DNA of 64,000 nt, from NCBI GenBank assembly GCA_001817505.1, contig MHIM01000034.1, positions 51,005-115,004 on the forward strand, read 5' to 3'. Below the pieces are notes generated by a model, which did not search any database, was not told the DNA's origin, and worked only from the letters and a program-made list of their open reading frames with translations. Origin of the DNA: Candidatus Buchananbacteria bacterium RIFCSPLOWO2_01_FULL_39_33 (GTDB lineage Bacteria; Patescibacteriota; Patescibacteriia; 2-01-FULL-39-33). Within the stretch, counting starts at the first letter, position 1; every line of letters starts with the position of its first letter. The translations under genes and the position numbers were made by a program. Of this stretch, positions 2,918 through 59,431 are shown piece by piece.

Positions 2918-4672
2918 ATGTCCACTCTTTATAGAAAATACCGGCCACAGATTTTTGCTGACGTCATTGGCCAAAATCACGTCAAAATTATTTTACAACA
3001 TGAAATTGAGCAGGGTAAAATTGGCCACGCTTATCTTTTTTGTGGCCCCAGGGGACTGGGCAAAACAACGCTGGCTCGGCTTTTTGCCAAAGCGGCCAAT
3101 TGCGAAAATAGAAAAGCCGGCGAAAGTGAACCCTGCAATAAATGTCAATCTTGTAATGGTATTACCGCTAATAATTCAATTGATATTATTGAAATTGACG
3201 CCGCTTCCCATACTGGCGTTGATAATGTCCGGGAAAATATCATTGACAACGCCAGGTTCACGCCCACTATCAGCCAATATAAAGTTTTTATCATTGATGA
3301 AGTGCATATGCTGTCCATCTCGGCTTTCAATGCCCTGTTGAAAACTTTGGAAGAACCGCCGGCGCATGCCATTTTCATTTTATGCACTACCGAAACGCAT
3401 AAACTGCCCCAGACGATAATCTCACGCTGCCAGCGGTTTGATTTAAAAAGAGTGTCGGCCAAAGAATTGAAAAATAGATTAGAAAAAATCGCTAAAGCCG
3501 AAGGTAAAAAAATAGACGGGCCGGTTTTAGACAATATTATCAGGCATTCCGAGGGCTGCGTCCGCGATGCTGAAAGCTTATTAGGCAAGATTTTTACTTT
3601 AGGCGAAACGATAACCAGCGAACAGGCGGAAATCATTTTGCCTCGATCCGATTTTAATAAAATCGCTTCCTTTTTGGGTTTTATTGCGGAAAACAATTCA
3701 ACTGCTGCCATTGAACTGGTCAATAATTTAATTGAGGACGGTATAGATATGCAGGTTTTTGTGGAAGATCTCTTGGAATTTTTAAGGAAGATAATGCTGA
3801 TCAAAGTCAATGGCAATCTTAGCGATTTTGGCATAGAATTGGATGAAGAATCGCAAAAATCAGCCCAAGAACTAGCCCAAAGGTTTGATTACCGCAAGCT
3901 GATGGCCACTATTGATTTGTTTATGATCAAACGCCAGGCCATCAAATCGGCGCTAATTCAGCAGTTTCCCTTGGAAATGGCGGTTATAGAACTGACTGAA
4001 GAAATTTCTCCTGCCAAAGATTATGACGGTGATGATAGCGAACCAGGCAGTAAGCTGGAAGGTATTGATCTTTCCAGAACTCAAAGGGTTAAAGAAAAAA
4101 TCAAAGATAAATTGTCGCATTTGAACCCGATCAAGCCTAGAAGCACTGAAATATCGCTGGCCAATATTGATTTGAAAAAAGAGGACGCTGATGGGATTAA
4201 AATTGATATGATTTCTTCAAGTGGCAAATTAGGCGAGGAAAAATCAGTTAATTTCAGCAAAGTTAAGGAGAATTGGAAGGAAATCGTGGTTAAATTATTA
4301 GAAGAAAATTATACCATAGCCTCGCTTTTAAGAATCAGCGAACCTTTAAGATGCGATGGCAATGTCTTGGAAATAGCCGTCAAAAATAATTTTTATTACC
4401 AGCGGATCGTTGACCGCTCTAATCGCTTGCTAATAGAGAAAATCATATCCGACGTGCTCAAATTAGAAGTTAAAATCAGACCGATTGTCAAAGATAATGT
4501 TGTGCCTCTGCCGGTGGAAATTGATTATCCGGTGGCTGCCAGTGATGAATCTCAAGTCCTATCACCGGTAACAACAGTAACCGAACCATCAACCGTGAAA
4601 ATAAAAAATTTGGAAAAAGTTTCTTTAGACAAGCCGGCTGATGCCGCCCAGGATGTAATTAGTATGTTTTGA
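2918..4672 (+). CDS. dnaX: DNA polymerase III subunit gamma/tau.
   Basis: N-terminus YRPQxFxDVIGQ...GHAYLFCGPRGLGKTT (Walker A) and the zinc module CxxCxxC (CNKCQSCNG). AAA+ clamp-loader hallmarks. Confidence 0.9.
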   Translation: MSTLYRKYRPQIFADVIGQNHVKIILQHEIEQGKIGHAYLFCGPRGLGKTTLARLFAKAANCENRKAGESEPCNKCQSCNGITANNSIDIIEIDAASHTGVDNVRENIIDNARFTPTISQYKVFIIDEVHMLSISAFNALLKTLEEPPAHAIFILCTTETHKLPQTIISRCQRFDLKRVSAKELKNRLEKIAKAEGKKIDGPVLDNIIRHSEGCVRDAESLLGKIFTLGETITSEQAEIILPRSDFNKIASFLGFIAENNSTAAIELVNNLIEDGIDMQVFVEDLLEFLRKIMLIKVNGNLSDFGIELDEESQKSAQELAQRFDYRKLMATIDLFMIKRQAIKSALIQQFPLEMAVIELTEEISPAKDYDGDDSEPGSKLEGIDLSRTQRVKEKIKDKLSHLNPIKPRSTEISLANIDLKKEDADGIKIDMISSSGKLGEEKSVNFSKVKENWKEIVVKLLEENYTIASLLRISEPLRCDGNVLEIAVKNNFYYQRIVDRSNRLLIEKIISDVLKLEVKIRPIVKDNVVPLPVEIDYPVAASDESQVLSPVTTVTEPSTVKIKNLEKVSLDKPADAAQDVISMF

Positions 4673-4698: not shown

Positions 4699-4728
4699 AA
4701 AATCGTAGAGCTATCTACGATTTTTTAG
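4699..4728. terminator. Bidirectional intrinsic terminator, the palindrome AAAAAATCGTAGAGCTATCTACGATTTTTT, between the convergent genes dnaX (+) and the 98-aa ORF (-).
   Basis: Perfect hairpin flanked by an A-run and a T-run. Confidence 0.6.
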
Positions 4729-5021
4729 ATGTTTTTCCGCCGTTGACTTTCCGGATATTCTTCATCAGGGATTGTTTTTAATTCTTTGGGCAAACCAGTT
4801 TTACCGAAGATGCCTTTTTGTTTTTCCAGCGAAACAATAACCGATTCAAGAGCTTTAATTTGCCTGATTGTTTGGTTGCAAAGTTCTGCCAGTACCGTTA
4901 CCAATTCGTCATCTAAAGCTTTATTTTCTTGTAAAATAGTGGTTAATAGGCGTAATTCCGATCTTTTAGTGTCTAAAATTTTCTGAGTCATCTTTAAACT
5001 TAACACCAGATCGCTTTCCAT
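4725..5021 (-). CDS. Hypothetical 98-aa protein.
   Basis: The ORF converges on the bidirectional terminator, and a promoter-like AT-rich region lies upstream at 5022-5200. Confidence 0.4.
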   Translation of the reverse strand: MESDLVLSLKMTQKILDTKRSELRLLTTILQENKALDDELVTVLAELCNQTIRQIKALESVIVSLEKQKGIFGKTGLPKELKTIPDEEYPESQRRKNI

Positions 5022-5209
5022 GGTCTCACTCCTGGTTGAAATGTTCTATAATTATTTTATACTTGTTATGATTAATTTTCAAGATTACCATAATTTCTTG
5101 ATAATTTAGGGTTTTTATGATATTATTCTTTAAGCTTTAAGCGATTTTAATATTTTTCTCTTCTTAATGAAATGGAGACCCGTTTTGACTAAAGTTACGG
5201 CGGACATGG

Positions 5210-5280
5210 TCGGGGGTCGTCTAATGGTAGGACACTTGGTTCTGGTCCAAGGTATCGGGGTTCGAATCCCTGCCCCCGAG
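5210..5280 (+). tRNA. tRNA-Gln, anticodon CTG. CCA is not encoded.
   Basis: Acceptor TCGGGGG/CCCCCGA (U1-A72, as in bacterial tRNA-Gln). Anticodon stem-loop CTTGG-TTCTGGT-CCAAG. T-arm CGGGG-TTCGAAT-CCCTG. Discriminator G. Confidence 0.8.
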
Positions 5281-5582: not shown

Positions 5583-6593
5583 ATGCCAAGAAAAATTTTC
5601 ATTATTTTAATATGTTTAATTAGCTTGGGCGCAGTTGGCGGAGCATACTGGTATCAAAAAGAAAAAACAAAATGGGTTGCTATGTTGACGCCAACACCAA
5701 TCAATACATTATCACAAGTGCCCATTAGAGGCGTGCCCAAAACAAGCGCTTCCGCGATTACCTCACCGCCATCTAGTATGGAAGGTATCAATACTCACAC
5801 AGAAGTATTCGGCACAGACTCTGACCCTAAAATGATTACACTTGGCCCTAAACTTGGCAGTCATCCGGAACTTCCAGCATATGATACCCACCATGGCTTG
5901 GTTTTTGAACTAAAAATTCACGGAACACCCGTACTTGCACCTATTGATATGGCCCTGGTGGGCTTTCAAAATAATAGTAGTTATCGGACAGACGGGCAAA
6001 ATATTACACCAATGGATGATTTGGTATTGTTTTTTGAATCTACCAGTCCTGATTGGCCGGGAATGATTATTTTTGTTTATCATTTATCTAGCTCCCCACT
6101 ATTGCTTGAGCAAAATATAAATCCGGTTTGTAGTGCAGTTAAGGAGCCTCGAGGAGAAAATATCCAGGCTTTGGGGCATCTTTACATGGGTATGAGGGAT
6201 TACGTTCCCGACGACAAAAATAACGCGAGCGCTTGCAAAGCTCTAATTGGATACAAGGTAAAACGAGGGGAATTAATTGGATTTGCCGGTACTGTGCCGA
6301 ACTCAAATGGTATTGGCACTCATTCTTTTGTTGATATTGGATTCAAAGTATCGGACATATCAGAAAATCCGTTCTTTGGTCTCAAGGGATCAGACGTTTC
6401 AGGAGAACGACAAGATAAAACAGGAAATCGCTACCTGCATTGGGTTCAGCCTAGCTCATTCTTTTATTGGAAAAGTTATAGCCCTGATGCGAATTTCCCC
6501 AGTGGGGTGCTGGCTTATCCTTTTGAAATTGACGGTTATCAGCTTCCCGCCGAACAGCGCAATATAAATTATAAATATACTTCGAAAAAATAA
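5583..6593 (+). CDS. Secreted or membrane-anchored hypothetical protein of 336 aa with an N-terminal TM segment. A distant M23-peptidase-like motif is possible.
   Basis: N-terminal hydrophobic segment MPRKIFIILICLISLGAVGG. The stretch HGTPVLAPIDMALVG weakly resembles the M23 GTPVxA motif. Confidence 0.5.
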   Translation: MPRKIFIILICLISLGAVGGAYWYQKEKTKWVAMLTPTPINTLSQVPIRGVPKTSASAITSPPSSMEGINTHTEVFGTDSDPKMITLGPKLGSHPELPAYDTHHGLVFELKIHGTPVLAPIDMALVGFQNNSSYRTDGQNITPMDDLVLFFESTSPDWPGMIIFVYHLSSSPLLLEQNINPVCSAVKEPRGENIQALGHLYMGMRDYVPDDKNNASACKALIGYKVKRGELIGFAGTVPNSNGIGTHSFVDIGFKVSDISENPFFGLKGSDVSGERQDKTGNRYLHWVQPSSFFYWKSYSPDANFPSGVLAYPFEIDGYQLPAEQRNINYKYTSKK

Positions 6594-6780
6594 AAGGCGG
6601 CACGCTAGCTTCGCTGGCACGAAATTCGGCGGCGGAAAAGCGAGGGCGGGCAAAAATTCCTTCCCCCCAACCCCCTTCCTTTTTGCCCGCCTCCTCCAAA
6701 GACGGACAGGCGATCTTAAAGTTTTTCAAAATTCAGCGTTCGGATTTTCGCTAAAAAAAGTTCGGATTTCGTTCAGCGTT

Positions 6781-6827
6781 CGGAGCAAACAAAAACACTC
6801 CCCTTTGGGAGTGTTTTTGTTTGCTCC
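6781..6827. terminator. Perfect 21-bp-stem hairpin GGAGCAAACAAAAACACTCCC-CTTT-GGGAGTGTTTTTGTTTGCTCC.
   Basis: Seen in the sequence. It lies immediately 3' of the tRNA-like fragment on the minus strand. Confidence 0.5.
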
Positions 6828-6852
6828 TGGTGTAAGGTTGGGATTCGAACCG
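6828..6852 (-). pseudogene. tRNA 3'-end remnant: GGTTCGAATCCCAACCTTACACCA read on the minus strand. No foldable 5' half was found.
   Basis: T-loop TTCGAAT and a CCA-like end are present, but the T-stem does not pair and no acceptor partner exists upstream. Confidence 0.3.
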
Positions 6853-7257
6853 ACAGAAGCGAGTTATGAGCAAAATTGAAAGGCCTAAAAAGTTATCCAC
6901 TTAAATGGATTTGTAAAATTATTGAATGATGGTAAAATGAGCGTGGTTAGGAGGCGAATATTTTAATAGATATAGTTAATTAGATCATAGAAATTATGAC
7001 CTTAATGGTTTTATTTCGTCATTTCAACCCCTTATTGCTGATAAATAATCATTTTTGTGTTTTATAATCTCTGAGTTTTTAACTCAGATTTTTTTATTTT
7101 AATGCAAATAATTTATATATTTTAGTTTTAAATTAATTAAAACGGTTTCTAACAGGTCGAATTGCCACCAGGCAGTTTTAACCGTCATAATTTAGAACTG
7201 ACAAATTAAACCTTTAAGGTTAAAACTAAGGAGGAGTTTAAGAAATAAATAAAAACA

Positions 7258-8052
7258 ATGAAGAAAGTTTTAATTAGTTTGAGCGCAATTGTTCTCGTGG
7301 CTGCGGTAGCCATCGGCGCGACTGTCGCTTTTTTTAGCGACACTGAAACATCAACTGGCAATACTTTTACTGCCGGCGCGATTGATTTGACAGTGGACAG
7401 CCAGCAACATTATAACGGACATGAATGTGTGCCAAATCTTGATACCGCCACCTCAGAAAATATGCCTTATGTTTGGGGACCGGGCAGAAATCCTTACCCG
7501 GTAACAGGCACAGCTTGCGGCGGTACTTGGAGACTTAAAGATTTAGTTCCCACTTTTGATAAATTCTTTAATTTTGGCGATATCAAACCAGGTGATGAAG
7601 GAGAAAATACTATCAGCTTGCATGTGATAAACAATGATGCTTGGGTTTGCGCCGAGGTCTCTAATTTATCCAGCGATGATAATGGTTTAAATGAACCCGA
7701 GGCCTTAGTTGATGAATCTGACGGAGTAGGCAATGGCGAATTAGACGACACTATGCTTTGGACCATTTGGAGAGACGATGGAGATAATATTCGTCAGGAA
7801 AACGAACCGATATTAGCTTCTGGTCATCCGGTCAATGGTGTTTTGCCAATTTATGATTCAACTACTACGGGAACTCCATTACCAGGCGGTTCTATGACTT
7901 TTCTTGGCGTTTCTTGGACTCTGCCAGCTGAATCTGGCAATGAAACGCAAACCGACAGTTTAACTGGTGATATTTCTTTCCGGGTTGAGCAAGCCAGAAA
8001 TAATGAAAATTTCAGATGTGTCCCCGTACAAGAACCAACAGGAGATATTTAA
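7258..8052 (+). CDS. TasA/camelysin-family secreted protein with a SipW-cognate class signal peptide.
   Basis: N-terminus MKKVLISLSAIVLVAAVAIGATVAFFSDTETSTGNTFTAGAIDL fits the AxFxDxExS..NxFxAGxLDL pattern. A FNFGDIKPGDEG motif resembles the TasA NLKPGD region. RBS AAGGAGG upstream. Confidence 0.7.
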   Translation: MKKVLISLSAIVLVAAVAIGATVAFFSDTETSTGNTFTAGAIDLTVDSQQHYNGHECVPNLDTATSENMPYVWGPGRNPYPVTGTACGGTWRLKDLVPTFDKFFNFGDIKPGDEGENTISLHVINNDAWVCAEVSNLSSDDNGLNEPEALVDESDGVGNGELDDTMLWTIWRDDGDNIRQENEPILASGHPVNGVLPIYDSTTTGTPLPGGSMTFLGVSWTLPAESGNETQTDSLTGDISFRVEQARNNENFRCVPVQEPTGDI

Positions 8053-8075
8053 TCCACAATAATCATTAGACCTAT

Positions 8076-9365
8076 ATGAAAAAAATACTATTAAGTTTAG
8101 TAGCTATTGTGGCCGTGGCCGGAGTGGTAGCGGGGGTGACTATAGCTTTCTACAACGATACCGAAACTTCAGCCGGCAATATCTTTGTCGCTGGTTCGGT
8201 GGATTTGAAAGTTGACCATACCAAGCAAACTTACAATGACCATGAATGTGTTGGTAATTGTGAAGAGATTGGCAGCAATCTTGTTGTTAATGGTGGTTTT
8301 GAAACTCCAGATGTATCAACAGGTGGCTGGGCAATTTATCCGGATGCTAGTCAAACCTCCTGGACAGTTGAGTCCGGCGCGGGTTTGGAGATTCAAGACC
8401 ATGCTGCCGGCGATCCCCACAGTGGCAATCAATTAGCAGAATTGGATAGCAATAACTCTTCCGTTATTTCCCAAACTTTATCAACTGTGGCTGGCCAGCA
8501 GTACCGTTTAACTTTCTGGTATTCACCTCGTCCGAATCGCCCCGCCGGTGATAACACTATTGGCGCGATGGTCAAAGTTGTGAGTGATAGCACCATTCTG
8601 GTCAATGATACTATTGGCGCAACTTCAGCCGGTGGTTCACAGACCAGTTGGCAGGAGTTCACCTATAACTTTATAGCCACCGATAATAGCACTAAGGTTA
8701 TTTTTTCCGATTTAGGAACCAATAATTCCTACGGTGGGTATTTGGATGATATTTCGGTTAAGGAACTTGAATGTAGCAGCCAGTTTGAAGGTGTAGGCGC
8801 TTGCACTCTTTGGGGTGAGAGAGATCTTGGCCAGGGAGATACTTTTTTCAATTTTGACGACATTAAACCAGGCGATCATGGCACCAATGTTATCTCACTC
8901 CACGTCTATAGCAATAATGCTTACGCTTGTTTGATTACCAGCGACCAAGTGGATGATGAGAATATTGTTTATGAATCAGAAACCGGCGATAATACACCCG
9001 ATGTCGGCGAACTTTCTCAATATATGAATGTCTTCACTTGGGAAGATACTGATGGTGATGGCCTTTATGAATCGGGAGAGAGCCAATTTGCCAGCGGATC
9101 TCTATCAAATCTCTCAAATCTGATGAGCTTGGATTCAGCCAGCCAGCAATTTTTGACCGCCACCACTACCAAATATATCGGTTTGGCTTGGTGCGCCGGT
9201 ACGCTAATTGTCGGCAGCGAAGGTGATTTCACTTGCGATGGTTCAGGTATGTTAAATGACGCGCAATCAGATTCTTTCTCCGCCTCTTTAACTGCTTATG
9301 CCGAGCAAATCAGAAACAATAGCGGTTTCTTATGTTCAGGTGTGGAACTTCCTTCTAATGAATGA
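8076..9365 (+). CDS. Second TasA/camelysin-family secreted protein (429 aa), paralog of the 7258 ORF.
   Basis: N-terminus MKKILLSLVAIVAVAGVVAGVTIAFYNDTETSAGNIFVAGSVDL. Shared FNFDDIKPGDHG motif. Confidence 0.7.
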   Translation: MKKILLSLVAIVAVAGVVAGVTIAFYNDTETSAGNIFVAGSVDLKVDHTKQTYNDHECVGNCEEIGSNLVVNGGFETPDVSTGGWAIYPDASQTSWTVESGAGLEIQDHAAGDPHSGNQLAELDSNNSSVISQTLSTVAGQQYRLTFWYSPRPNRPAGDNTIGAMVKVVSDSTILVNDTIGATSAGGSQTSWQEFTYNFIATDNSTKVIFSDLGTNNSYGGYLDDISVKELECSSQFEGVGACTLWGERDLGQGDTFFNFDDIKPGDHGTNVISLHVYSNNAYACLITSDQVDDENIVYESETGDNTPDVGELSQYMNVFTWEDTDGDGLYESGESQFASGSLSNLSNLMSLDSASQQFLTATTTKYIGLAWCAGTLIVGSEGDFTCDGSGMLNDAQSDSFSASLTAYAEQIRNNSGFLCSGVELPSNE

Positions 9366-9490
9366 TGATCAAGATGAATAAATGAAAAGTATTTATTCAA
9401 TTTTGGAATCTTTTACTCAAGCCCTCAAAAGAGGGCTTGGGACTAAAGGTTTTTGTTTGAAGGGTTAGTTTATAAAATCGCCATATCATT

Positions 9491-10006
9491 ATGCCAAAAG
9501 TATTTAAGATATTTTATTATTTCGTCCTGATTTTAATTTCGGTCATCGCTTTGGCGCTGATAATTTCAATTTTGCCGATTCCCGGCAATATCAAAATTTT
9601 ATCCGTTCTCTCGGGTTCTATGGAACCGACCATTAAAACCGGCAGCGTGGTTTTGGTTAAGCCGGCGGTTAATTATCGTATCGGAGATATTGTCACTTTC
9701 AGGCCTGATAGAAAAATCCAAACGCCGACAACTCACCGGATTTATGACATTCGTCTTCAGACCGGCCAGCCGATTTATCTCACTAAAGGTGATGCCAATA
9801 ACACGCCGGATACCAAAGAAATTGCTCAACAGGATATTTTGGGCCAAGTTCTATTTTCTATCCCTTGGGCTGGCTATCTTATTGATTTTGCCAAAAAGCC
9901 GATTGGCTTTATGTTGGTTATTGTTATACCGGCAGCGGTTATTATTTATGATGAGATTAGAAAAATTTATGCAGAAGTCAAAAAAAAGCAAGAAAAAACA
10001 AATTAA
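9491..10006 (+). CDS. sipW: Signal peptidase I of the SipW / archaeal-ER type.
   Basis: N-terminal TM segment, then VLSGSMEPT (catalytic Ser motif of SipW-type SPases), and a C-terminal TM segment. Genomic context next to proteins with SipW-cognate signals. Confidence 0.8.
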   Translation: MPKVFKIFYYFVLILISVIALALIISILPIPGNIKILSVLSGSMEPTIKTGSVVLVKPAVNYRIGDIVTFRPDRKIQTPTTHRIYDIRLQTGQPIYLTKGDANNTPDTKEIAQQDILGQVLFSIPWAGYLIDFAKKPIGFMLVIVIPAAVIIYDEIRKIYAEVKKKQEKTN

Positions 10007-11471
10007 TCATGGTCTTATAAAAAATTCACTGTTTAAAATAGTGGCGCTTTTATTAGCCATTGGCCTTAATTGGTCGGGCCTTTTAGCGGTGACGGAAACT
10101 TTGGCTTATTACAATGACCAAGAGCAATCGCCCATAAATTTTATTGCCAGCATAGTTGATTTTTCTCTAAATAGCCAAGCGGATTTTATACCGGCAGTGA
10201 CGCCTGACCAAGCAGCCGACAAAAGCATTTATCTTAGCAATGATAGCGGCTTTGATTTGCAACATGACTTGGCTCTTAGTAATTTTACCGGTGATTCTAA
10301 TTTGTGTGATAATTTAATGCTTAATGCTAATTTAGGCGGCACCAATATTTATTCTGGCCGTCTTTTGGATTTCACATTTACCACCACCACTTTGGCTGGC
10401 TCAAGTTCCGCCCTATTAGAGCTGGAAGCTTTCTTGGCGGAAGGTGACGAAGCTTTAAAGAATAAAACTTGCAATTTTAATTTGCATGTTTTGGGTTGGC
10501 AGATTGATTCTGCTGCTACTGGCCAGGGTTTTACGGATGATGAAATAATCGCCAATAGCGTTTCTTCTGGTGATTGGATTATTGAGATTCCGCCAACTCC
10601 GGTAGCTACCGGCGATGTCATCATCAATGAAATCATGTGGATGGGCAGCCGGACTGATGATGATCACAATAAAATCGGCGACGAGTGGATTGAATTGAAA
10701 AATATGACCGATCAGGCAATAGATATTGGCCAGTGGCTGATTGCCAATGCCAGAAACAACGGCAATGATTTAATGATTCCGGCCAGCAATTCAATTCCGG
10801 CCAACGGCTATTTCTTGATTGCCAATAATCCCAGAGACAGCGCCAACACCCTGATTGATGTGGAGGTTGATGAAGTGAATAATAGCCTAGAACTCATCAA
10901 TGATTACAATAGCAATGGCCCGATAATTTTAAAAGATGCCGGTGATAATATTATTGACCAGACGCCGCCAGCCGATGATAGTAATTGGCCGGCTGGTGCC
11001 AATGCCACTGATAAGAAATGGTCAATGGAAAGGAATTTAGATCCGACAACCGGCTGGCATACTTGCGATCCGACTGCCCTGACTTTTGAAGAGCTAACTT
11101 TAATGTCTAATTACTGGAAAATCAATGCTCAAAATTACAATTGTGGCACACCGGGCGCCGGTAATTTGTCAGTTAATAATTTAAATTTACCGGCGGTCTT
11201 GACAGATAACAATCCGGGATTAGGCTTATTAGAACTGCCAACTGAAAATCTTGGCGAAAATTGGCCAGGCAATGAAAATACAGAAAATCTTAATGAAAAC
11301 CGGCCCATTAATGATAATACAGGTGTTGAAGAACCGGCTGCTATAGAAGAATCAAGTGAGGCAGTGCCCGAGCCGGAACCCGAGCTCATATCGGAGCCGG
11401 AGCCGGCTTTAGAGCCGACGCCGGTGCCCGATTTGACTGCGCCAGCGCCAACGGTAATTCCGACTGATTAA
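9969..11471 (+). CDS. Secreted lamin-tail-domain (LTD) protein with a SipW-cognate-like signal peptide and a Pro/Glu-rich C-terminus. The track ORF begins at 9690, but the likely start is ATG 9969, which overlaps the end of sipW.
   Basis: MQKSKKSKKK...LLAVTETLAYYNDQEQSPINFIASIVDF matches the signal class. VIINEIMW...DEWIELKNMTDQAIDIGQWLI...GYFLIA matches the LTD hallmark (INEI...EWIEL.N....DL.GW.L). Confidence 0.6.
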   Translation: MQKSKKSKKKQINHGLIKNSLFKIVALLLAIGLNWSGLLAVTETLAYYNDQEQSPINFIASIVDFSLNSQADFIPAVTPDQAADKSIYLSNDSGFDLQHDLALSNFTGDSNLCDNLMLNANLGGTNIYSGRLLDFTFTTTTLAGSSSALLELEAFLAEGDEALKNKTCNFNLHVLGWQIDSAATGQGFTDDEIIANSVSSGDWIIEIPPTPVATGDVIINEIMWMGSRTDDDHNKIGDEWIELKNMTDQAIDIGQWLIANARNNGNDLMIPASNSIPANGYFLIANNPRDSANTLIDVEVDEVNNSLELINDYNSNGPIILKDAGDNIIDQTPPADDSNWPAGANATDKKWSMERNLDPTTGWHTCDPTALTFEELTLMSNYWKINAQNYNCGTPGAGNLSVNNLNLPAVLTDNNPGLGLLELPTENLGENWPGNENTENLNENRPINDNTGVEEPAAIEESSEAVPEPEPELISEPEPALEPTPVPDLTAPAPTVIPTD

Positions 11472-11479
11472 ATATCAAT

Positions 11480-12868
11480 ATGATTAAAATCAAGAAAATA
11501 AAATTTTTTGGCTTCTTGGCTGCTTTGGTATTGGTTGGTAGTTCGGTCTCGGCTATGTCTGCACCAGTAGCAGCGGCAATCGGCAATTTATCTGTTGAAT
11601 TTGAGAATTCTCCGCTTTTTAGTGAGAATAATTTTTTACCCGGTTCGTCGGTGACGCGCTTTGTAAAAGTAACCAATAACACTGATTTAGCGCAAGATGT
11701 TTTTACCGAAACCAACAACGAATTAAATTCTGATAATTTTGGTGATGTTCTTGATTTGGTTATCAAGCAGGGCGGTGCTGTTGTTTGGAATGGTAGTTTA
11801 ACCGATTTTTTTGCGACTGATAAAACGCCGTTGTCGTCCATTAATGCCCAGCAAACTATTCAATATGATTATACTGTTTCCTTAGTTAATGGCGCCAGTA
11901 ATGATTTTCAAGGCAAGACCTTAGGGTTTGATTTGGTGATTGGTTTTTTGGGCACCGGTGATGTGGTGGATGATAGTAGTGGCACAGTAACGATTTCTGG
12001 CAGTAGCGGCGGCGGCTGGCCGGTTGGTTTGATTATTTATAATGAAGCCGAAATTAATGTTGGGGCAACTACGGCTACTATTACTTGGCTGACCAATTAT
12101 TCGGCTACCAGCCGCGTTATTTACAGCGCGGAAAACGAACCACACGACTTTGATTATACTAATCCGCCCAATTATGGCTATGCCCATTCTACAACTGATG
12201 ATTTATCCAAAGTAGTTTCCCATCAAGTGGAATTAACCGGCTTAACTCCCGGCACTTTATACTATTACCGAGCGGTTTCCCAGGCTTCACCGGATACTGT
12301 CGGTTTAAACCAAAGTTTTACCACTGCCGGAAATAAACCTGAACCTTTAACTGATCAAATACCACCAGGTAAGTTCCAGCCAGAATCAGAGGCATTATCG
12401 TCCTTACCGCCAGGTTCAAGTCAACCACCAGGCGCTACTGGCAATGAAAGCCCTAATGAAGTTGCGCAACCGGTTATCACCGAAACGAATCAGGAACAAA
12501 ATGGCCAAGTGGCTGGCCAAGAAGAAGTGTGCCGATCCCGGCCTTGGTGGCTTTTAGCTACTATGATTATTGGTTACTTGATTTTAATGGTTATAAATTA
12601 TTTAGACAGGTTTAACAAGGAATTAACCAATCTTAAAGAACGTTTGAGTTTTATTTTTGCTTTGCTTTTAGCCGCTTGGCCGGTTTTGGTTTATTTTTTC
12701 ACCATTGGTTTTGCTTGGTGGGTTTGGCTGATTGTTTTGGCGGCTTATGGTATTGTTTTAATTTATTATCGTTATGATTTATTATCTTCAAACTATTGGC
12801 GTTTGAGCTTAGCCCTGACTTTGTATTTATTTTTAATGTTGTTATTGCTTAAAATTTTTATTTGTTAA
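11480..12868 (+). CDS. Secreted protein with an FN3 / purple-acid-phosphatase-N-like domain and a C-terminal multi-TM anchor.
   Basis: Sec-type signal. ITWLTNYSATSRVIYS...LTGLTPGTLYYYRAVS is an FN3-like segment. Three or four C-terminal hydrophobic helices. Confidence 0.55.
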   Translation: MIKIKKIKFFGFLAALVLVGSSVSAMSAPVAAAIGNLSVEFENSPLFSENNFLPGSSVTRFVKVTNNTDLAQDVFTETNNELNSDNFGDVLDLVIKQGGAVVWNGSLTDFFATDKTPLSSINAQQTIQYDYTVSLVNGASNDFQGKTLGFDLVIGFLGTGDVVDDSSGTVTISGSSGGGWPVGLIIYNEAEINVGATTATITWLTNYSATSRVIYSAENEPHDFDYTNPPNYGYAHSTTDDLSKVVSHQVELTGLTPGTLYYYRAVSQASPDTVGLNQSFTTAGNKPEPLTDQIPPGKFQPESEALSSLPPGSSQPPGATGNESPNEVAQPVITETNQEQNGQVAGQEEVCRSRPWWLLATMIIGYLILMVINYLDRFNKELTNLKERLSFIFALLLAAWPVLVYFFTIGFAWWVWLIVLAAYGIVLIYYRYDLLSSNYWRLSLALTLYLFLMLLLLKIFIC

Positions 12869-12896: not shown

Positions 12897-12928
12897 TTAA
12901 AATAACACCCGGCCGGGTGTTATTTTAA
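12897..12928. terminator. Bidirectional terminator, the palindrome TTAAAATAACACCCGGCCGGGTGTTATTTTAA.
   Basis: Perfect palindrome between convergent genes. Confidence 0.65.
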
Positions 12929-12945: not shown

Positions 12946-15486
12946 TTATTTCACTGTCGCCATTCCTTCTACTCCATTGCCGCCAAACTTTTTATAAAAC
13001 ATCAATTTCAATATTTCCGTGCCGATAAAGTAAGCTATAACCACACTGAAAATTATTAGCAAGTGATTAATAGTCGGCCGGCTAAAAGAAAATATTTGCT
13101 GTCCCCAAAGAGTTAAAGGAATAAAAACTGTGGCTAAAGCCGCGACCAGGGATAAGGCAGAAAGCAGAACTGACGGTTTTTGAGCCGCCAGGAAGAAGAA
13201 TTTGGTGCGAATGGAAAAAATCAGAACTAATTCAGTTAGAATACTGCCGATAAACCAATTAGTTTGCAAGACCGCCGGTGAAACGCGGTAAAACAAACTA
13301 AAAAATATAAAATCAAAAACCGTGCTAAGCAGTCCCAAAACAATGGAAAAGATTATAATGTCTTTAATCTCGTACTTTTTTGGCGATTTCAGTTCACTGG
13401 TGTCAACTGAATCGGAAGCGATGGCAATCATCGGAAAATCCGAGAGCAAATTAATTAAAAGTATTTGCAAAGGCAATATTGGCAAGAAGTCAACCAATAA
13501 AGAAGCGGCGGCGACAGCAAAAAAATTGCCGAAATTAGAAACCAAAGTCGTTTTGATGTATTTAGTGGTATTAGCAAAAATTTTTCGGCCTTCTTCAATA
13601 CCGTTTAAAATCACGCTTAGATCTTTTTTCAAAAGCAAAATATCAGCTGTTTCTTTGGCAATGTCTGAAGCGCTCTCCACCACCAAAGAAACACCAGCCG
13701 CTTTTAGAACTGGCGCGTCATTGATGCCTTCACCCAAAAAGCCCACCTCATACCTGGTTTGCAGAGCTTCAACCAAGGAATATTTTTGTTCTGGTGAAAC
13801 CCGGGCGAAAACAGAATATTTTTCCAAGGCCTCTATTTTTTTCTTGGCATTAAATTTTTCCCAATTCTCGGCCAATAAGACATTGGCCGGTGCTTCTATT
13901 AAGCCGATTTTATAAGCCACTGCCCCGGCCACTTCCGGACTGTCGCCGGTGATGATTTTTATTTTTACTCCCAGAGATCGGGCTTTTTTAGCCACTTGAT
14001 AAGTGCTGGGCTTGATGCTGTCGGCAAAAGAAACAATGCCTAAAAAATCAAAATCTTTTTCATTGCTTAAATTATTTTTTGACTCAGGATTAGTTTTGAT
14101 AGCGATAGCTATTGTCCGGCGGCCAAGATGGCCCTCGGTTCTAAACCACTTGTAAATCCTGTCTGTTTCAACCGGGGTTAAACTAGGGCAAAGCGGGATA
14201 ATAGCTTCAACAGCGCCGCGGGTAATTAATAAGGTTTCATTTTTTTTAGTTACTAAAGCGATATTTCTTTTGATTCTTGGATCAAAAACATCCTCATTAA
14301 GCAATTGATAGCGGCCAACTTCTCTTTGCTCGCTTTTATTTAATTTCTTCCATAAGGCGATGTCAAAGGGTTCAAGTTTTTTGGGCTGTTTGAAATTTGA
14401 AGCCAAGTTGGCTTGAAATAAAATTTCTTTATCAGTAGTTTTTTGGGCATAGATATTAGCCACTGATAACTTGTTCTGCGTCAAAGTGCCGGTTTTATCA
14501 GCGCAAAGAATTTCAATACTGCCTAAATCTTCCACTGCCGACAACCTTTTAACGATTATTTTTTTCTTGGCTAAATTTCTGGCGCCGCGCGACAGAGAGA
14601 AAGTTGTTACTACCGGCAAGGCCTCAGGAATAACGCCGACAGTCAGGGCAATGGTAAAAATTAGAAGTTCAGCCGCGTCGGCTCTCTCGCCCTTAATTAA
14701 GATATTGGCTAAAAAAACAATTATCAAGGTGACAATCACCAGTTTCAAAATAAAATTAGAAAATTTTAAAATACCTTTTTCAAAATTACTGGTGTGTTTA
14801 ACTTCGGTAGCTAAGCTGGCGATTTTACCCACCGCTGTTTGTCGGCCCGTGCCGATTACTACGGCTTTAGCTTCGCCGATTAAAATGGCCGTGCCGGCCA
14901 AGCCCAAGTTAACGGCTTGATAATAATCCTTAGCTGGTTTTTTAAGGCTGCCGGCTTGCTTGTCAACCGGGGTTGATTCGCCGGTTAAAATACTTTCATC
15001 AACTGATAAATGTTCTAAATCAAGGAAATAGACGTCGGCTGGAATTTTATCGCCGGTTTCTAAAAAAATAATATCTCCCAAAACCAGTTCTTCATCTTTA
15101 ATAACAACTTTTATTCCATCGCGTAAAACTTTAACCCGGGAAACTACATATTGCTTTAAAAGCTGAACGGTTTTTTCTGTTCGGTATTCTTGAAAAAATC
15201 CCAAGCCGGCATTAATTGATAAAAATAAGATCATCATCAAGGCCTCCAGATATTCTCCTAAGCCGATGGTGATCAGCGAGGCCGCTATTAGCAGGTAAAT
15301 AAAAGATGACTTAAATTGCCTGCTTAAAATTTTCCACCATTTTAATTGGATTTCAGACAGGATGTTCGGGCCATGTTTTTTTAGCAGCTCTTTGGCTGAT
15401 TTTGAACTCAAGCCCTTAAAAGCGTCTGATTGCAATTCCTTAATAATTGCCTCCGAGCTTTGAGCGCTATAATTAAGAACCTCCAT
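12946..15486 (-). CDS. P-type cation-transporting ATPase, Ca2+/Mg2+ type II-like.
   Basis: Motifs CADKTGTLT, TGES-like and GEGINDAPVLKAAGV, with about 10 TM segments. Confidence 0.9.
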   Translation of the reverse strand: MEVLNYSAQSSEAIIKELQSDAFKGLSSKSAKELLKKHGPNILSEIQLKWWKILSRQFKSSFIYLLIAASLITIGLGEYLEALMMILFLSINAGLGFFQEYRTEKTVQLLKQYVVSRVKVLRDGIKVVIKDEELVLGDIIFLETGDKIPADVYFLDLEHLSVDESILTGESTPVDKQAGSLKKPAKDYYQAVNLGLAGTAILIGEAKAVVIGTGRQTAVGKIASLATEVKHTSNFEKGILKFSNFILKLVIVTLIIVFLANILIKGERADAAELLIFTIALTVGVIPEALPVVTTFSLSRGARNLAKKKIIVKRLSAVEDLGSIEILCADKTGTLTQNKLSVANIYAQKTTDKEILFQANLASNFKQPKKLEPFDIALWKKLNKSEQREVGRYQLLNEDVFDPRIKRNIALVTKKNETLLITRGAVEAIIPLCPSLTPVETDRIYKWFRTEGHLGRRTIAIAIKTNPESKNNLSNEKDFDFLGIVSFADSIKPSTYQVAKKARSLGVKIKIITGDSPEVAGAVAYKIGLIEAPANVLLAENWEKFNAKKKIEALEKYSVFARVSPEQKYSLVEALQTRYEVGFLGEGINDAPVLKAAGVSLVVESASDIAKETADILLLKKDLSVILNGIEEGRKIFANTTKYIKTTLVSNFGNFFAVAAASLLVDFLPILPLQILLINLLSDFPMIAIASDSVDTSELKSPKKYEIKDIIIFSIVLGLLSTVFDFIFFSLFYRVSPAVLQTNWFIGSILTELVLIFSIRTKFFFLAAQKPSVLLSALSLVAALATVFIPLTLWGQQIFSFSRPTINHLLIIFSVVIAYFIGTEILKLMFYKKFGGNGVEGMATVK

Positions 15487-20997: not shown

Positions 20998-22488
20998 ATG
21001 CCAGAAAAAACTCTTAAGAAAATAACCGAAGTTTTTCCAGCTGCCCTGGTTTGGCTGACTTTTATAGTTATTATAACCCTATCTTTTGCCCGCCCCCTTT
21101 GGGCGATTTATTTTATTTTGGTTTTCGTGGTTTATTGGATAGTCCGTCTTTTTTATATGATGGTCTGGCTGGTGATTTCTTGGGTGAGATATCTTAGAGA
21201 CATCAAAATTGATTGGTTGGAAAAAATTAAAATTTTGCCTAAAGATTATCGGGAGTATTACCAGGTGATTGAATATCCCACTTGCGGCGAACCGTATGAA
21301 GTGGTAGCCAGATCTTTTGAGGCCTTGCTGAAAACCAATTATCCTAAAGATCAAATGATTGTGGTTTTAGGCGGTGAGGAGAGGAAGGGTGAACAATTTT
21401 TGAAAGTGGCTAAAGAGATTAAGGAAAAATTTGGCAGCCAATTTTTTAAATTGCTTATTACTGTCCATGAATTGCAGCCCGATGAATTGCCCGGCAAAGG
21501 AGCTAATGTCCATTATATGGAATGGGAAATTAAAAAACTGATTGATGAACTTAACCTTCCTTATGAAAAAGTAATTGTCTCTTCTTTTGACATAGAAACC
21601 CTGCCCCACCGCCAGTATTTCTCTTACTTGGCTTATAAATATTTGACTCACCCCAATCCCACCCATGCCAGCTATCAGCCGCTTATTTTATATAACAATA
21701 ATATTTGGGAGTCCAATCCGATAATTCGCGTGGTCGCTTCGGCTACCACCTTCTGGCTTTTAACTGATCTTTCCCGACCGGAAAAATTGTTGACTTTTTC
21801 TTCCCATAGCATGAGCTTCAAAATGCTTTTTGATGTCGGTTTTCATGACAAGACCATTGTGACTGAAGACTCGCGTATTTGTCTACAAGGCCTGGTGCAG
21901 TACGACGGTAAGTATGAAGTTGTGCCGATGTTTGTCACTCTTTCAATGGATACCGTTTACATCGGTAAATTCTGGCAGAGCTTGAAGAACCAATACAAGC
22001 AGATGAGGCGCTGGGCCTGGGGGGTAGAACATTTTCCTTGGATGTGGCAGAATTTTTTTAGCCAAAAGGCCAATAAAAATATTCCTCTTAAGAAAAGAAT
22101 TCAATATCTTTGGAATCAAACCGAGGGCATGTATTCTTGGGCCGTAGCCCCTCTTTTAATTTTAGTCATTGGCCGTTTGCCGCTTTTTTTGGCCTCTGAC
22201 GAAGATAAGGCGACGGCTTTTTTCCAGAACGCTCCTCGTATGTTGGAAAATTTAATGGTTATCGGTATGGTTGGTTTAATTACCAATTCGGTGATGTATA
22301 CGCTGATGTTGCCGAATAGACCTCAAGGTTATTCCTGGCTTAATTATATTATTATGCTGGCGCAATGGGTGGTTTTTCCCGTGACTATGATAATCTTCGG
22401 TTCCATTCCGGCTCTTGACGCTCAAACCCGGCTAATGATCGGCGGCCGCTATAAACTGGGTTTTTGGGTGACGGAAAAGAAAACCTGA
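20998..22488 (+). CDS. Membrane-embedded processive family-2 glycosyltransferase, cellulose/chitin-synthase-like.
   Basis: TED motif (IVTEDSRI) and Q(x)xRW motif (KQMRRWAWG). Multiple TM helices at both the N- and C-termini. Confidence 0.65.
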   Translation: MPEKTLKKITEVFPAALVWLTFIVIITLSFARPLWAIYFILVFVVYWIVRLFYMMVWLVISWVRYLRDIKIDWLEKIKILPKDYREYYQVIEYPTCGEPYEVVARSFEALLKTNYPKDQMIVVLGGEERKGEQFLKVAKEIKEKFGSQFFKLLITVHELQPDELPGKGANVHYMEWEIKKLIDELNLPYEKVIVSSFDIETLPHRQYFSYLAYKYLTHPNPTHASYQPLILYNNNIWESNPIIRVVASATTFWLLTDLSRPEKLLTFSSHSMSFKMLFDVGFHDKTIVTEDSRICLQGLVQYDGKYEVVPMFVTLSMDTVYIGKFWQSLKNQYKQMRRWAWGVEHFPWMWQNFFSQKANKNIPLKKRIQYLWNQTEGMYSWAVAPLLILVIGRLPLFLASDEDKATAFFQNAPRMLENLMVIGMVGLITNSVMYTLMLPNRPQGYSWLNYIIMLAQWVVFPVTMIIFGSIPALDAQTRLMIGGRYKLGFWVTEKKT

Positions 22489-37520: not shown

Positions 37521-38558
37521 ATGTTCAAAAAGTTTTTTGGCCAGTTCAATAAAGGCCTGGGCATTGATCTGGGCACCACCAAGACCATCGTCTATCAGCA
37601 GGATAGGGGGATTGTGGTCAGCGAATCATCAGTGGTGGCGGTCAATATCAGAACCGACCAGATTTTAGCGGTCGGCGATGAAGCCATGAAGATGGTGGGC
37701 AAGACCCCGCCGCATATCGTTGCCACCATTCCGTTGGATAATGGCATTATTTCTGATTTTGAAATAACCGAAAAAATGCTCAAATATTTTATGGACCGTG
37801 TGGCTGCCGGCCGAATTGCCCTAGCAGTTAAGCCCAAGGTGGTAGTGGGCATACCGCTGGATATTACAGAAGTTGAAAAAAAAGCGGTTGAAGATGCTGT
37901 CTTGTCAGCCGGTGCCAGCCAGGTATTTTTAGTGGAAAACATTATGGCGGCGGCCATTGGCGCCAGGATTCCCATTCAAGACCCTTCGGGCAATATGATT
38001 GTCAATTTAGGCGGCGGCCTGACAGAAATCGCTGTTATTTCGCTTGATGGCATCGTTAACTGGAAATCAAGCCGCGTTGCCGGCTTGACTTTGGACAAGG
38101 ATATTATCAGATTCGCCAGAGATGAATTCAATCTGGTTTTGGGTGAAATAGTGGCTGAAGATATCAAGAAAAAAATCGGCTCGGCCCTGGAATTAACTGA
38201 ACCTTTGACGATGCAGATGCGCGGCCGGGATATCATCTCCGGCTTGCCGAAAGAGTTTGATGTCAATGATTCCCAGATCCGCGTAGCTATCTTTAAATCC
38301 ATCCAGCATATTTTAGATACGATTAAAGCCACTTTAGAAACCACTCCGCCGGAATTGGTGGCTGATATTTATCAAAAAGGTATAATTTTAACCGGCGGTC
38401 TGGCTCTCTTGAAAAATTTTGACAAATTTATCGCTCAGGGAATTGAGATTCCCGTTCACGTGGCTGATGATCCCCAGACCTGCACTATCAGGGGTCTGGG
38501 TGTTACCATTGACGACGAACATCTGCTTAAAGACATTATTATTCCCTCATCGCAGTAA
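37521..38558 (+). CDS. mreB: Rod shape-determining protein MreB, paralog 2.
   Basis: GIDLGTTKT...ESSVVAV... actin fold. Followed by mreC/mreD-like genes. Confidence 0.9.
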   Translation: MFKKFFGQFNKGLGIDLGTTKTIVYQQDRGIVVSESSVVAVNIRTDQILAVGDEAMKMVGKTPPHIVATIPLDNGIISDFEITEKMLKYFMDRVAAGRIALAVKPKVVVGIPLDITEVEKKAVEDAVLSAGASQVFLVENIMAAAIGARIPIQDPSGNMIVNLGGGLTEIAVISLDGIVNWKSSRVAGLTLDKDIIRFARDEFNLVLGEIVAEDIKKKIGSALELTEPLTMQMRGRDIISGLPKEFDVNDSQIRVAIFKSIQHILDTIKATLETTPPELVADIYQKGIILTGGLALLKNFDKFIAQGIEIPVHVADDPQTCTIRGLGVTIDDEHLLKDIIIPSSQ

Positions 38559-39559: not shown

Positions 39560-40081
39560 ATGTGGTATAAAATATTATTGTCAATAATTGCCATTATAAC
39601 TTTGATTATAATTCAAGTCACTTTCTTAGGAAGTTTTAGCGCCTACTGGAGCAATTTTAATTTGGCTTTGGCAATTTTGGTGATTTTGCTATTTTTTCTT
39701 GATTTCCCGATGATCATGTTTTTTGCCGTCACCGCTGGCTTTATGCTGGACCTTTACTCGGCCCTGCCTTTTGGCATATTTATGCTTTCGGTTTTTACCG
39801 CCGCTTTAACAGCTGAATTTCTGCTTTTTAATTTTTTTACCAACCGTTCTTTTTATTCCGTTGTTTTTTTAGGTCTGGCAGCCGTGCTGGCTTTTAATGC
39901 CGCTTTTTTAACTCTTAGCGGCTTAACTTATTTATTCAATCTTAGTGATTTTTACTTAGATAGCAGTTATTGGCGGCAGCTGATTTATCAACTGATAAAC
40001 ACTTGGCTGATTTTAATTGTTTTATTTTTGCCGATCAATAAATTGTCCAGGAAATTTAAACCGAATTTTATCAGTTCATGA
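39560..40081 (+). CDS. mreD: Rod shape-determining protein MreD (polytopic membrane protein).
   Basis: Five hydrophobic helices. Position between mreC and PBP2. Confidence 0.5.
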   Translation: MWYKILLSIIAIITLIIIQVTFLGSFSAYWSNFNLALAILVILLFFLDFPMIMFFAVTAGFMLDLYSALPFGIFMLSVFTAALTAEFLLFNFFTNRSFYSVVFLGLAAVLAFNAAFLTLSGLTYLFNLSDFYLDSSYWRQLIYQLINTWLILIVLFLPINKLSRKFKPNFISS

Positions 40082-57406: not shown

Positions 57407-58134
57407 TGAGCCAAGATATCATTATCAAGGTTGAGAATTTAAAAAAGGATTATGTCAATGATGAAATAGTCACCGAAGTTCTTGATAATCTTAATTTTGA
57501 AGTGGCCAAGGGGGAATTTTTAGCGATCATGGGGCCATCGGGCTCCGGCAAATCAACTTTAATGCACTTGCTGGGATTTTTAGATACGCCGACTTCAGGC
57601 AGATATATTTTTAAAGGCAATGATGTTTCCAATTTGAGCGATGATGAATTGGCTAAAATCCGAAATGAAGAAGTTGGCTTTGTTTTCCAAACATTTAATT
57701 TATTGCCTAAGACCACTGTTTTTGACAATGTTAAGCTCCCGCTTTTATACAGCCGGCTCAAAGACCGCGATAGGCGAGTGACAGAGGCGATTACAGCCGT
57801 CGGCTTATTGCACCGCCTGAATAATCTTTCTAATCAGCTTTCCGGCGGCGAAAGGCAGAGGGTGGCGATTGCCAGAGCGCTAGTTACCAACCCCAGCGTT
57901 ATTTTCGCCGATGAACCGACTGGCAATTTAGATACTAAATCCGGCCAGGTGATTATGGGGATTTTAGAAAAACTCAACAATGAAGGCCACACGATAATTT
58001 TAGTCACTCATGAGCAATATACCGCTCAGCACGCCCAAAGGATAATTAAGATTATAGACGGCCAGATAGTTAGCGATGAAAAAGTCAGCGCCAGGCGATC
58101 ATCGTTAAATGGCAATGATATTTTCTTGAAATAA
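57406..58134 (+). CDS. macB: ABC transporter ATP-binding protein, MacB/LolD type.
   Basis: Walker A GPSGSGKST, signature LSGGERQRVAIARAL, Walker B IFADEPTGNLD. Confidence 0.9.
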   Translation: MSQDIIIKVENLKKDYVNDEIVTEVLDNLNFEVAKGEFLAIMGPSGSGKSTLMHLLGFLDTPTSGRYIFKGNDVSNLSDDELAKIRNEEVGFVFQTFNLLPKTTVFDNVKLPLLYSRLKDRDRRVTEAITAVGLLHRLNNLSNQLSGGERQRVAIARALVTNPSVIFADEPTGNLDTKSGQVIMGILEKLNNEGHTIILVTHEQYTAQHAQRIIKIIDGQIVSDEKVSARRSSLNGNDIFLK

Positions 58135-58149
58135 AATTATTAAGTTAAG

Positions 58150-59385: not shown

Positions 59386-59431
59386 TTGAAATTCAAAATC
59401 CAAAATCCAAAAATCAAAACTAAGGAAAAAT

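Follow-up and report, generated by a model that had tools for sequence, protein, structure and literature searches.

A SipW-linked operon of TasA-like proteins in Candidatus Buchananbacteria, proposed to build a membrane-tethered surface fibre

Patescibacteria, or the candidate phyla radiation (CPR), account for a large part of bacterial diversity and live mostly attached to other cells. To our knowledge, the type IV pilus is the sole CPR attachment organelle discussed so far. A locus in the genome of one of these bacteria, Candidatus Buchananbacteria from Rifle groundwater, raises the question of whether there is a second. In a 64-kb stretch of this genome (the window), ORF (open reading frame) calling places five co-directional genes on the plus strand at 7258-12868, bracketed by two strong hairpins. 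The third gene, sipW, encodes a signal peptidase, and the others, here g1, g2, g4 and g5, encode proteins with N-terminal signals. The gaps are operon-like: g1 and g2 stand 23 nucleotides (nt) apart, g2 and sipW 125 nt and g4 and g5 8 nt, while sipW and g4 overlap by 38 nt. A preliminary description of the DNA had drawn the same five reading frames, with the same coordinates and strand, and had recognised the genome as CPR-like.

The operon probably specifies a SipW-dependent surface fibre of TasA type, built by donor-strand exchange between subunits and, unlike TasA of Bacillus, tethered to the cell membrane. On sequence comparison all four genes other than the peptidase belong to the TasA superfamily, with a strength that differs by protein.

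The peptidase and the four TasA-like proteins

The sipW product (9491-10006, plus strand) is a signal peptidase I of 171 amino acids (aa) of the endoplasmic reticulum (ER)/archaeal type, with transmembrane (TM) segments at residues 12-30 and 138-156. The proposal that it is of the SipW/archaeal class, and not an ordinary LepB, was upheld by hidden Markov models (HMMs): TIGR02228 (sigpep_I_arch) gives 125.6 bits against a cutoff of 51.85, and TIGR02227 (sigpep_I_bact) only 25.8 bits against a cutoff of 47. The equivalog model for the Bacillus protein, NF046067, gives 111.6 bits, under its cutoff of 190. By these scores the window SipW shares the class of Bacillus SipW and lies outside its orthologue group. 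Across 71 homologues, conservation is 95% or more at S43 (in SGSMEP), H82 (in THR), D101 and D107 (both in GDANxxxD), and these boxes we take to be the predicted Ser/His/Asp catalytic pattern of the SipW/Sec11 class, which replaces the Ser-Lys dyad.

Upstream of sipW lie the two paralogues. The 264-aa product of g1 (7258-8052, plus strand) is a plain TasA-like protein and the candidate major subunit. It consists of a signal (residues 1-24), a predicted donor strand, FFSDTETSTGNTFTAGAIDLTVD (residues 25-47), and a putative jelly-roll body (about residues 48-260) that holds a KPGD strand and a C-terminal NxxQTDS..F.V.Q strand. The 429-aa paralogue encoded by g2 (8076-9365, plus strand), a candidate lectin-bearing subunit, has a DUF642/MAM/choice-of-anchor-C (galactose-binding-like) domain at residues 69-229 (nt 8280-8762), an insertion that separates the donor strand from the KPGD strand. 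The insert matches DUF642 at E 9e-9, MAM at E 1e-6 and TIGR04362 at E 1.5e-21, and the rest of g2 is matched by the g1-family HMM in two stretches, residues 3-75 and residues 244-424 (E 2.6e-59). The motifs quoted when the locus was first described are all found, AFFSDTETSTGNTFTAGAIDL in g1, AFYNDTETSAGNIFVAGSVDL in g2, and FNFGDIKPGD, VLSGSMEPT and IINEIMW/DEWIELKN/GQWLI.

The SipW-cognate signal model TIGR04088 (cutoff 19) recognises both proteins, g1 with 31.5 bits and g2 with 22.5 bits. Two outcomes had been named in advance as speaking against the early interpretation, the lack of such a signal match and a peptidase of LepB type; the HMM searches gave the signal match in g1 and g2 and a peptidase of the other class. 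Cleavage of g1 and g2 is predicted after A24, which aligns with A28 of mature TasA. The most conserved part of the g1 family is its N-terminal segment, with F26, S27, D28, E30, S32, N35, F37, A39, G40, D43 and L44 invariant. F26 and F37 align with F29 and F39 of TasA; the donor strand makes three hydrophobic contacts in the fibre structure, and these are two of them (PMC9674648).

How far the likeness to TasA extends beyond this segment is less clear-cut. Comparison of a g1-family profile of 59 sequences with an alignment of 36 Firmicutes TasA/CalY proteins gave an hhalign probability of 93.7% (E 1.9e-7) over the N-terminal 51 columns only. (The B. subtilis TasA sequence used was checked against PDB 8AUR, with 100% identity over 234 residues.) With N-termini trimmed, a low-diversity alignment matches TasA at the KPGD strand only (hhalign p 0.006), and the g1 family against the single TasA sequence gives just a 21-column C-terminal match (hhalign p 0.12). 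An alignment of 204 paralogue cores was needed for the bodies of g1 and g2 to match the TasA body at p 3e-4 (39-45%); the match is then collinear for about 160 columns, starting at the KPGD strand and ending at the C-terminal N-x-x-Q...F-x-x-x-Q strand. The earlier naming of these two proteins as TasA-like stands for the signal and donor strand, where similarity is significant, but in the body it is only suggestive. The assignment to Peptidase_M73 (PF12389) likewise holds in part: residues 2-50 of both match, but they reach only profile positions 4-51 of 196. The weak homology of their bodies points to g1 and g2 as divergent TasA-superfamily proteins outside strict PF12389. The AlphaFold2 (AF2) model of g1 is an all-beta sandwich with a predicted local distance difference test score (pLDDT) of 79.5 and low confidence at residues 20-40, where the putative donor strand begins. 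Among solved relatives with long alignments, the closest are donor-strand filaments without exception. Neither HExxH nor LPxTG (searched as LP.[TSA]G) occurs in any of the five proteins.

The gene that overlaps the 3′ end of sipW by 38 nt, g4 (9969-11471, plus strand; alternative start at 9948), encodes a 500-aa protein that is the candidate TapA-like accessory subunit. Its SipW-type signal, with cleavage predicted after A46, is followed by a donor-like strand, YYNDQEQSPINFIASIVDFSL, a TasA-like domain (about residues 47-200, nt 10107-10568, plus strand), a lamin-tail domain (LTD; residues 213-331, nt 10605-10961, plus strand) and an acidic tail rich in Pro and Glu (about residues 421-500, nt 11229-11468, plus strand). 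The LTD, which had been proposed together with the overlap, is matched by PF00932 at 52.9 bits against a gathering score of 34.3 (E 5.3e-14), and the Pro/Glu-rich tail had also been read correctly. That g4 carries the same class of signal as g1 and g2 is only partly sustained, with TIGR04088 at 14.9 bits, under the cutoff, but with an N-terminus that aligns with the signal and donor strand of TasA (hhalign 97%). Over 180 columns the N-termini of g4 proteins reach 97.5% against TasA (E 8e-12), and the body alone reaches 43.5% (E 2.4e-4), a level of sequence similarity that argues moderately for homology of the g4 body with that of TasA. The overlap couples translation of g4 to that of sipW. In its donor-like N-terminus and its overlap or fusion with sipW, g4 resembles TapA, as a functional analogy only; it is not classed as TapA because its first domain is TasA-like instead.

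A run of eight A residues (9980-9987) lies inside the overlap, where g4 is read in the +1 frame relative to sipW, and in view of the in-frame fusions in 17 related genomes slippage could in principle yield a SipW-g4 fusion here. Programmed frameshifting to that end was considered and set aside, A runs of at least seven being present in only 13 of 45 other unfused loci. The run probably reflects composition, being mere Lys codons in an AT-rich genome.

The last gene, g5 (11480-12868, plus strand), encodes a 462-aa membrane-anchored TasA-like protein with a signal peptide and is the candidate fibre base. Its parts are a TasA-like domain (about residues 30-160, nt 11567-11959), an FN3/PAP-N domain (residues 186-281, nt 12035-12322), a disordered linker of Pro, Gln, Glu and Ser (residues 297-352, nt 12368-12535) and four TM helices (residues 356-461, nt 12545-12862), all on the plus strand. 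Both features for which it had been singled out are there, the FN3/PAP-N-like domain by a match to Pur_ac_phosph_N (PF16656; 37.1 bits against a cutoff of 30, E 4.9e-9) and the C-terminal multi-TM anchor as four helices in the AF2 model. In that model the first sandwich (residues 30-160) has a pLDDT of 85-98 and the FN3 domain one of 94-98. The N-termini of g5 proteins from related loci match the TasA alignment at an hhalign probability of 97.3% (E 2e-11). Against TasA trimmed of signal and donor strand they still match at 97.0% (E 8.6e-11) over 112 columns, and a second, independent g5 alignment, from a protein database, pairs g5 residues 45-154 with TasA 53-228 at 96% (E 5e-9). These alignments argue strongly for homology between the g5 and TasA bodies. 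The g4 HMM matches the g5 body (E 1e-11), and none of the other ORFs of the window is matched by the g1-family, g4 or g5 models. The anchor or tip role suggested early on for the LTD and FN3 proteins is strengthened by the TasA-like domain with which both begin and by the fusion of g4 to SipW in 17 related genomes.

Relatives in other genomes and the closest known systems

The g1 family comprises more than 2315 clusters in a protein collection, nearly all from Patescibacteria. A scan of GTDB species representatives with two peptide patterns found 319 genomes, from which 80 loci were kept; 70 of these are evaluable and the other 10 lie on truncated contigs. They include loci in a complete Campbellbacteria genome and in Ca. 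Microsyncoccus archaeolyticus. The synteny comparison that had been suggested as a check proved uniform, with sipW directly 3′ of an array of two to four TasA-like paralogues in all 70 evaluable loci. At the site between donor and KPGD strands, where g2 has its galactose-binding-like domain, paralogues in other genomes hold DUF642, a SpaA-type prealbumin domain (SpaA_2), DUF11 or Laminin_G_3.

Two arrangements follow the array. In type A (53 loci, the window's type) a short SipW is followed by a gene at the g4 position and then, in at least 25 loci, by a g5-type gene. The sipW and g4-position genes overlap in 32 of 45 unfused loci. The g4-position proteins range from 246 to 999 aa and have in common the N-terminal signal, the TasA-like domain and a tail rich in Pro, Glu, Asp, Thr and Ser; an LTD is present in nine of ten sampled, and some add CBM96, bacterial Ig-like or DUF11 domains. 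C-terminal TM segments are kept in 23 of 25 g5 homologues. In type B (17 loci: L025, L032, L035, L037, L041, L048, L056, L057, L062, L064, L067, L071, L072, L075, L078, L082 and L084) SipW is 341-560 aa long, with an in-frame C-terminal extension of g4 type (hhalign 99.9%, E 2e-31), and no g5-type gene is nearby. The fusion suggests either cleavage in cis or a tethered nucleator. The last paralogue before the fusion is about 290-510 aa long (most about 290-435) and in most cases its likeness to g1/g2 lies chiefly in the body, the signal region matching in part or not at all.

Of characterised systems the closest is B. subtilis tapA-sipW-tasA (PDB 8AUR, 5OF1). Shared with it are a dedicated ER/archaeal-type signal peptidase encoded in the operon; a SipW-cognate signal followed by a conserved N-terminal strand, A-F-x-D...F-x-x-G-x-h-D-L; a body, putatively a jelly-roll as in TasA, with a KPGD strand and a C-terminal N-x-x-Q...F-x-F strand; and an accessory protein with a donor-like N-terminus whose gene overlaps sipW. 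The 17 fusions and the 32 overlaps parallel the overlap of tapA with sipW and the low stoichiometry of TapA in B. subtilis (PMC10151520). Unlike the Bacillus operon, the subunit genes here come first and the accessory gene 3′ of sipW, the subunits form a set of two to four paralogues into which large adhesin or lectin domains are inserted, 17 of the 70 related loci fuse SipW to the accessory protein, and the g1 and g2 bodies are too diverged from TasA for PF12389 past position 51. TapA is a complete V-set Ig fold (PMC10151520), whereas g4 consists of a TasA-like domain, an LTD and an acidic tail. A TasA-like protein with FN3 and four TM helices, such as g5, has no Bacillus equivalent.

The archaeal bundling pili (ABP) of Pyrobaculum calidifontis (AbpA/AbpB, PDB 7UEG) and the 'thread' of Sulfolobus (Saci_0406, PDB 7PNB) are made of jelly-roll subunits joined by donor strands, as is proposed here, and AbpB, a larger multi-domain partner proposed as initiator or adhesin, is a further likeness. 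Unlike the window locus, the ABP operon has no dedicated signal peptidase nearby (PMC9245690). Both archaeal systems differ also in that they are without a SipW-cognate signal, that no TM-anchored family member has been described for them, and that sequence similarity to them is undetectable. The BsaA/SipW-dependent matrix polymer of Clostridium perfringens (TIGR04090) is another SipW-dependent secreted family encoded beside sipW; g1 is not a member, with 10.1 bits, in the signal region only, against a cutoff of 60. Chaperone-usher (Fim/Pap) and sortase pili resemble the proposed structure as cell-anchored Ig or jelly-roll fibres with a specialised adhesin and a base, the former also in the donor-strand principle; a further likeness is the SpaA-type prealbumin domain inserted in some paralogues. 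There is, unlike in chaperone-usher systems, no usher, chaperone or outer membrane, and, unlike in sortase pili, no LPxTG and no sortase gene in the operon, the anchor being integral to the membrane instead of a covalent link to the wall.

That homologues of PF12389 are 'readily identifiable' in Patescibacteria was stated in 2022 (Wang et al., PMC9245690), so the locus is a variant of a known TasA/SipW system; NCBI labels some relatives 'TasA family' or 'CalY family'. In a literature search on TasA, SipW or camelysin together with CPR or Patescibacteria that distribution remark was the only statement found, and no paper was found on the operon architecture, on the TasA-like nature of the LTD and FN3/TM proteins, on SipW fusions or on a link to a highly expressed Microsyncoccus gene. 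In the KEGG table for Ca. Microsyncoccus archaeolyticus PMX.50, PMX.50_00004 is SEC11/sipW and lepB is a separate gene (Kuroda et al., mBio 2024, PMC10936435). The five signal-peptide genes with the highest expression there include PMX.50_00003, to which a 'galactose-binding domain fold' is ascribed (PMC10936435), in a text from which TasA and SipW are absent. The start of contig 1 of PMX.50 (locus L081) reads ORF1, a g1-like gene, a g2-like gene (3374-4627), sipW (4719-5222), a g4-like gene and a g5-like gene, a gene order which suggests that PMX.50_00003 is the g2 homologue.

The DNA around the operon

On the left the operon is bounded by a 46-nt perfect palindrome (6782-6827, unstranded) 3′ of the upstream gene at 5583-6593, with an RNA folding free energy (dG) of -35.8 kcal/mol; it acts as a terminator-like element at the operon's left edge. 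On the right, the hairpin AAAATAACACCCGGCCGGGTGTTATTTT (12899-12926, unstranded; dG -18.4 kcal/mol), with A and T runs on its flanks, is a bidirectional terminator shared by g5 and a P-type ATPase gene that converges on it (12946-15486, minus strand). A promoter-like site, TTGCCA-18-CATAAT (7162-7191, plus strand), lies about 67 nt 5′ of g1 with 10 of 12 consensus matches, and is a candidate only, as a scan of the upstream region for promoter and terminator consensus sequences gave match counts no higher than expected from shuffling. Read from the sequence, g1 has a strong Shine-Dalgarno sequence, AAGGAGGAG (7228-7236, plus strand). What had been called a 660-bp leader (6594-7257) turns out to be ordinary intergenic DNA with a hairpin, a tRNA 3′ fragment, an AT-rich stretch, the promoter-like site and the Shine-Dalgarno sequence. 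The idea of a leader RNA in 6550-7300 was dropped, since Rfam (E-value mode) gave only chance miRNA and leader matches on the palindrome and no riboswitch.

Beside the palindrome, 6829-6870 on the minus strand resembles the 3′ half of a tRNA, with a CTCATAA anticodon loop, a T-arm GGTTCGAATCC and an end ...ACCTTACACCA, without a 5′ half. Neither ARAGORN nor Rfam calls it, and it may be a tRNA gene in decay or what an old integration site has left behind. A contig from another metagenome (L005, 1487-2266) carries the window sequence rightwards from the exact centre of the palindrome; to the left of the centre it has unrelated DNA with a PMT_2 gene, and the hairpin loop is inverted. The junction is either an inversion or rearrangement breakpoint or an assembly chimera.

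Directly 5′ of the operon, 5583-6593 encodes a protein of 336 aa that has a TM or signal segment at its N-terminus and no match in Pfam or NCBIfam. This gene and the downstream ATPase gene were rejected as members of the module, having no homologues beside it in the 80 related loci. The same locus is present on at least 24 other contigs. Its neighbours are the housekeeping genes dnaX, iPGM, mreB, PBP2, gyrB and dnaK/J, and GC content is flat; the locus is therefore part of the chromosomal core, and the idea of a mobile island was rejected.

Further off, the window of this ultra-small CPR genome holds two full-length MreB paralogues and a PBP2-type transpeptidase (26929-27936, 37521-38558 and 40078-41985), which imply an elongation (rod-shape) machinery. 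At E up to 1e-5, Pfam gives nothing for two large ORFs, 651-2498 (615 aa) and 20998-22488 (496 aa). A BNR/Asp-box (Sortilin-Vps10-like) beta-propeller repeat protein is encoded at 31916-32986, directly 3′ of a DNA polymerase III delta′-like gene. At 55751-60679 an HlyD-type membrane-fusion protein and two MacB/FtsX-type permeases, with a 242-aa ORF between the permeases that is probably the ATPase, form a MacAB-like exporter, here in a genome of monoderm type. Immediately to the left of the window (L001:451-3006), about 4 kb 5′ of its first ORFs, is a gene for an 851-aa DUF8128/T4SS-DNA_transf protein, a VirD4/TraG-like coupling ATPase, which recalls the monoderm-type type IV secretion system reported for Patescibacteria.

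Weighing a tethered fibre against other readings

For the tethered fibre, the following course may be envisaged. The Sec pathway would export g1, g2 and g4, and SipW would cut g1 and g2 after A24 and g4 after A46, just before the conserved F/Y-F/Y-x-D-x-E, to judge from the alignment with mature TasA. The N-terminal beta-strand so freed would enter the jelly-roll of a neighbour, chaining subunits head to tail. In such a chain g1 would be the plain and probably major subunit, and g2 a g1-type subunit with its galactose-binding-like domain in the loop after the donor strand, so that the fibre is studded with lectin-like modules. Produced in concert with SipW, or as a fusion to it, g4 would be a TapA-like, low-stoichiometry nucleator or a terminal adaptor or adhesin. 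The membrane-embedded g5 would form the base holding the fibre, its linker of about 55 residues spanning the wall, and the lectin-like and LTD domains would offer binding surfaces. Polymerisation, subunit order and polarity we infer by analogy. The likely use is adhesion to surfaces or to host cells of an episymbiont-type bacterium.

Several results weigh against this reading. The match to PF12389 is confined to signal and donor strand in g1, in g2 and in every relative scanned, and g1 and g2 do not match the family over its full length. A sequence-profile search of the PDB with the g1 family gave no match at E up to 1, and Foldseek with the g1 model against the PDB gave only marginal matches (TasA at E 2e-3). 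The protein g4 has no C-terminal TM segment and no membrane or wall anchor, which makes its place in any fibre a guess. TIGR04088 does not match g5, whose signal c-region is of the ordinary AxA type (SAMSA); g5 may be a LepB substrate, and in its AF2 model the N-terminal strand is packed in cis. Two other cultured Paceibacteria that parasitise archaea have lepB and no sipW (PMC10936435); the module, patchily distributed, is therefore accessory and not required for episymbiosis.

An alternative that shares the SipW step is that the operon encodes lectin, LTD and FN3 beta-sandwich adhesins which act as monomers, their N-terminal segment serving SipW recognition only and no fibre being formed. 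The weak likeness of the g1 and g2 bodies to TasA fits this, as do the many inserted domains, which are adhesin or lectin modules able to work alone, and the nature of TIGR04088, which marks a signal class and not a fibre. A recognition site does not so readily account for conservation that continues for about 20 residues past the predicted cleavage, alternates in hydrophobicity and covers the TasA contacts F29 and F39, nor for the strand and putative TasA-like acceptor fold common to four different proteins of one operon. The filament structures of the closest solved relatives with long alignments, and the pattern of tandem paralogues with a low-stoichiometry coupled partner, as in TasA/TapA, speak in the same direction, and the monomeric alternative is judged unlikely. 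Still less support is left for a camelysin (Peptidase_M73) metalloprotease function of g1 and g2, with sipW serving their maturation. The Pfam family name and the Peptidase_M73 matches suggest it, but those matches (profile positions 4-51 of 196) are limited to signal and donor strand, no HExxH or other zinc motif is present, and the solved member of the family, TasA, is a fibre subunit; such a function is highly improbable.

A third alternative accepts the polymer and denies the tether: a released biofilm matrix like that of Bacillus, with g5 an unrelated neighbour or no more than a temporary platform for assembly, and without involvement in host contact. In its favour, tapA-sipW-tasA, the characterised system most like the locus, is a matrix scaffold (PMC9674648, PMC10151520), and the ABP bundles of archaea likewise join cells in biofilms (PMC9245690). 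A g5 that is TasA-like and has conserved TM anchors adjoins the module, however, in about half of the short-SipW loci, and the presence of a membrane-anchored family member inside the operon favours tethering. The decorations, hypervariable and of lectin, Ig and LTD type, resemble recognition modules, and a homologue is highly expressed in a parasite attached to methanogens. A released matrix is in consequence considered quite unlikely.

With the tethered fibre preferred, the module is a candidate for some of the unidentified 'pili-like appendages' seen by cryo-transmission electron microscopy on ultrasmall groundwater cells (PMC7906910). A bolder conjecture, offered tentatively and open to considerable doubt, is that it represents a third kind of monoderm pilus beside sortase-linked and type IV pili, a donor-strand-exchange fibre rooted in g5, primed by a g4 coupled or fused to SipW, bearing swappable lectin, LTD and Ig modules, and lying behind at least some of these appendages, by which ultrasmall Patescibacteria touch their hosts in the groundwater images (PMC7906910). 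Such a pilus might determine host range.

For the annotation of these genomes there is a caution, that the labels 'Peptidase_M73' and 'TasA family' rest on the segment of signal and donor strand only. The fusions of SipW with a putative nucleator amount to a natural experiment on TasA/TapA nucleation. For the biology of the CPR, a TasA-type nature of the operon would give a candidate for a second surface fibre, its base anchored in the membrane and its lectin-like decorations variable, and the hypervariable domains may track host specificity.

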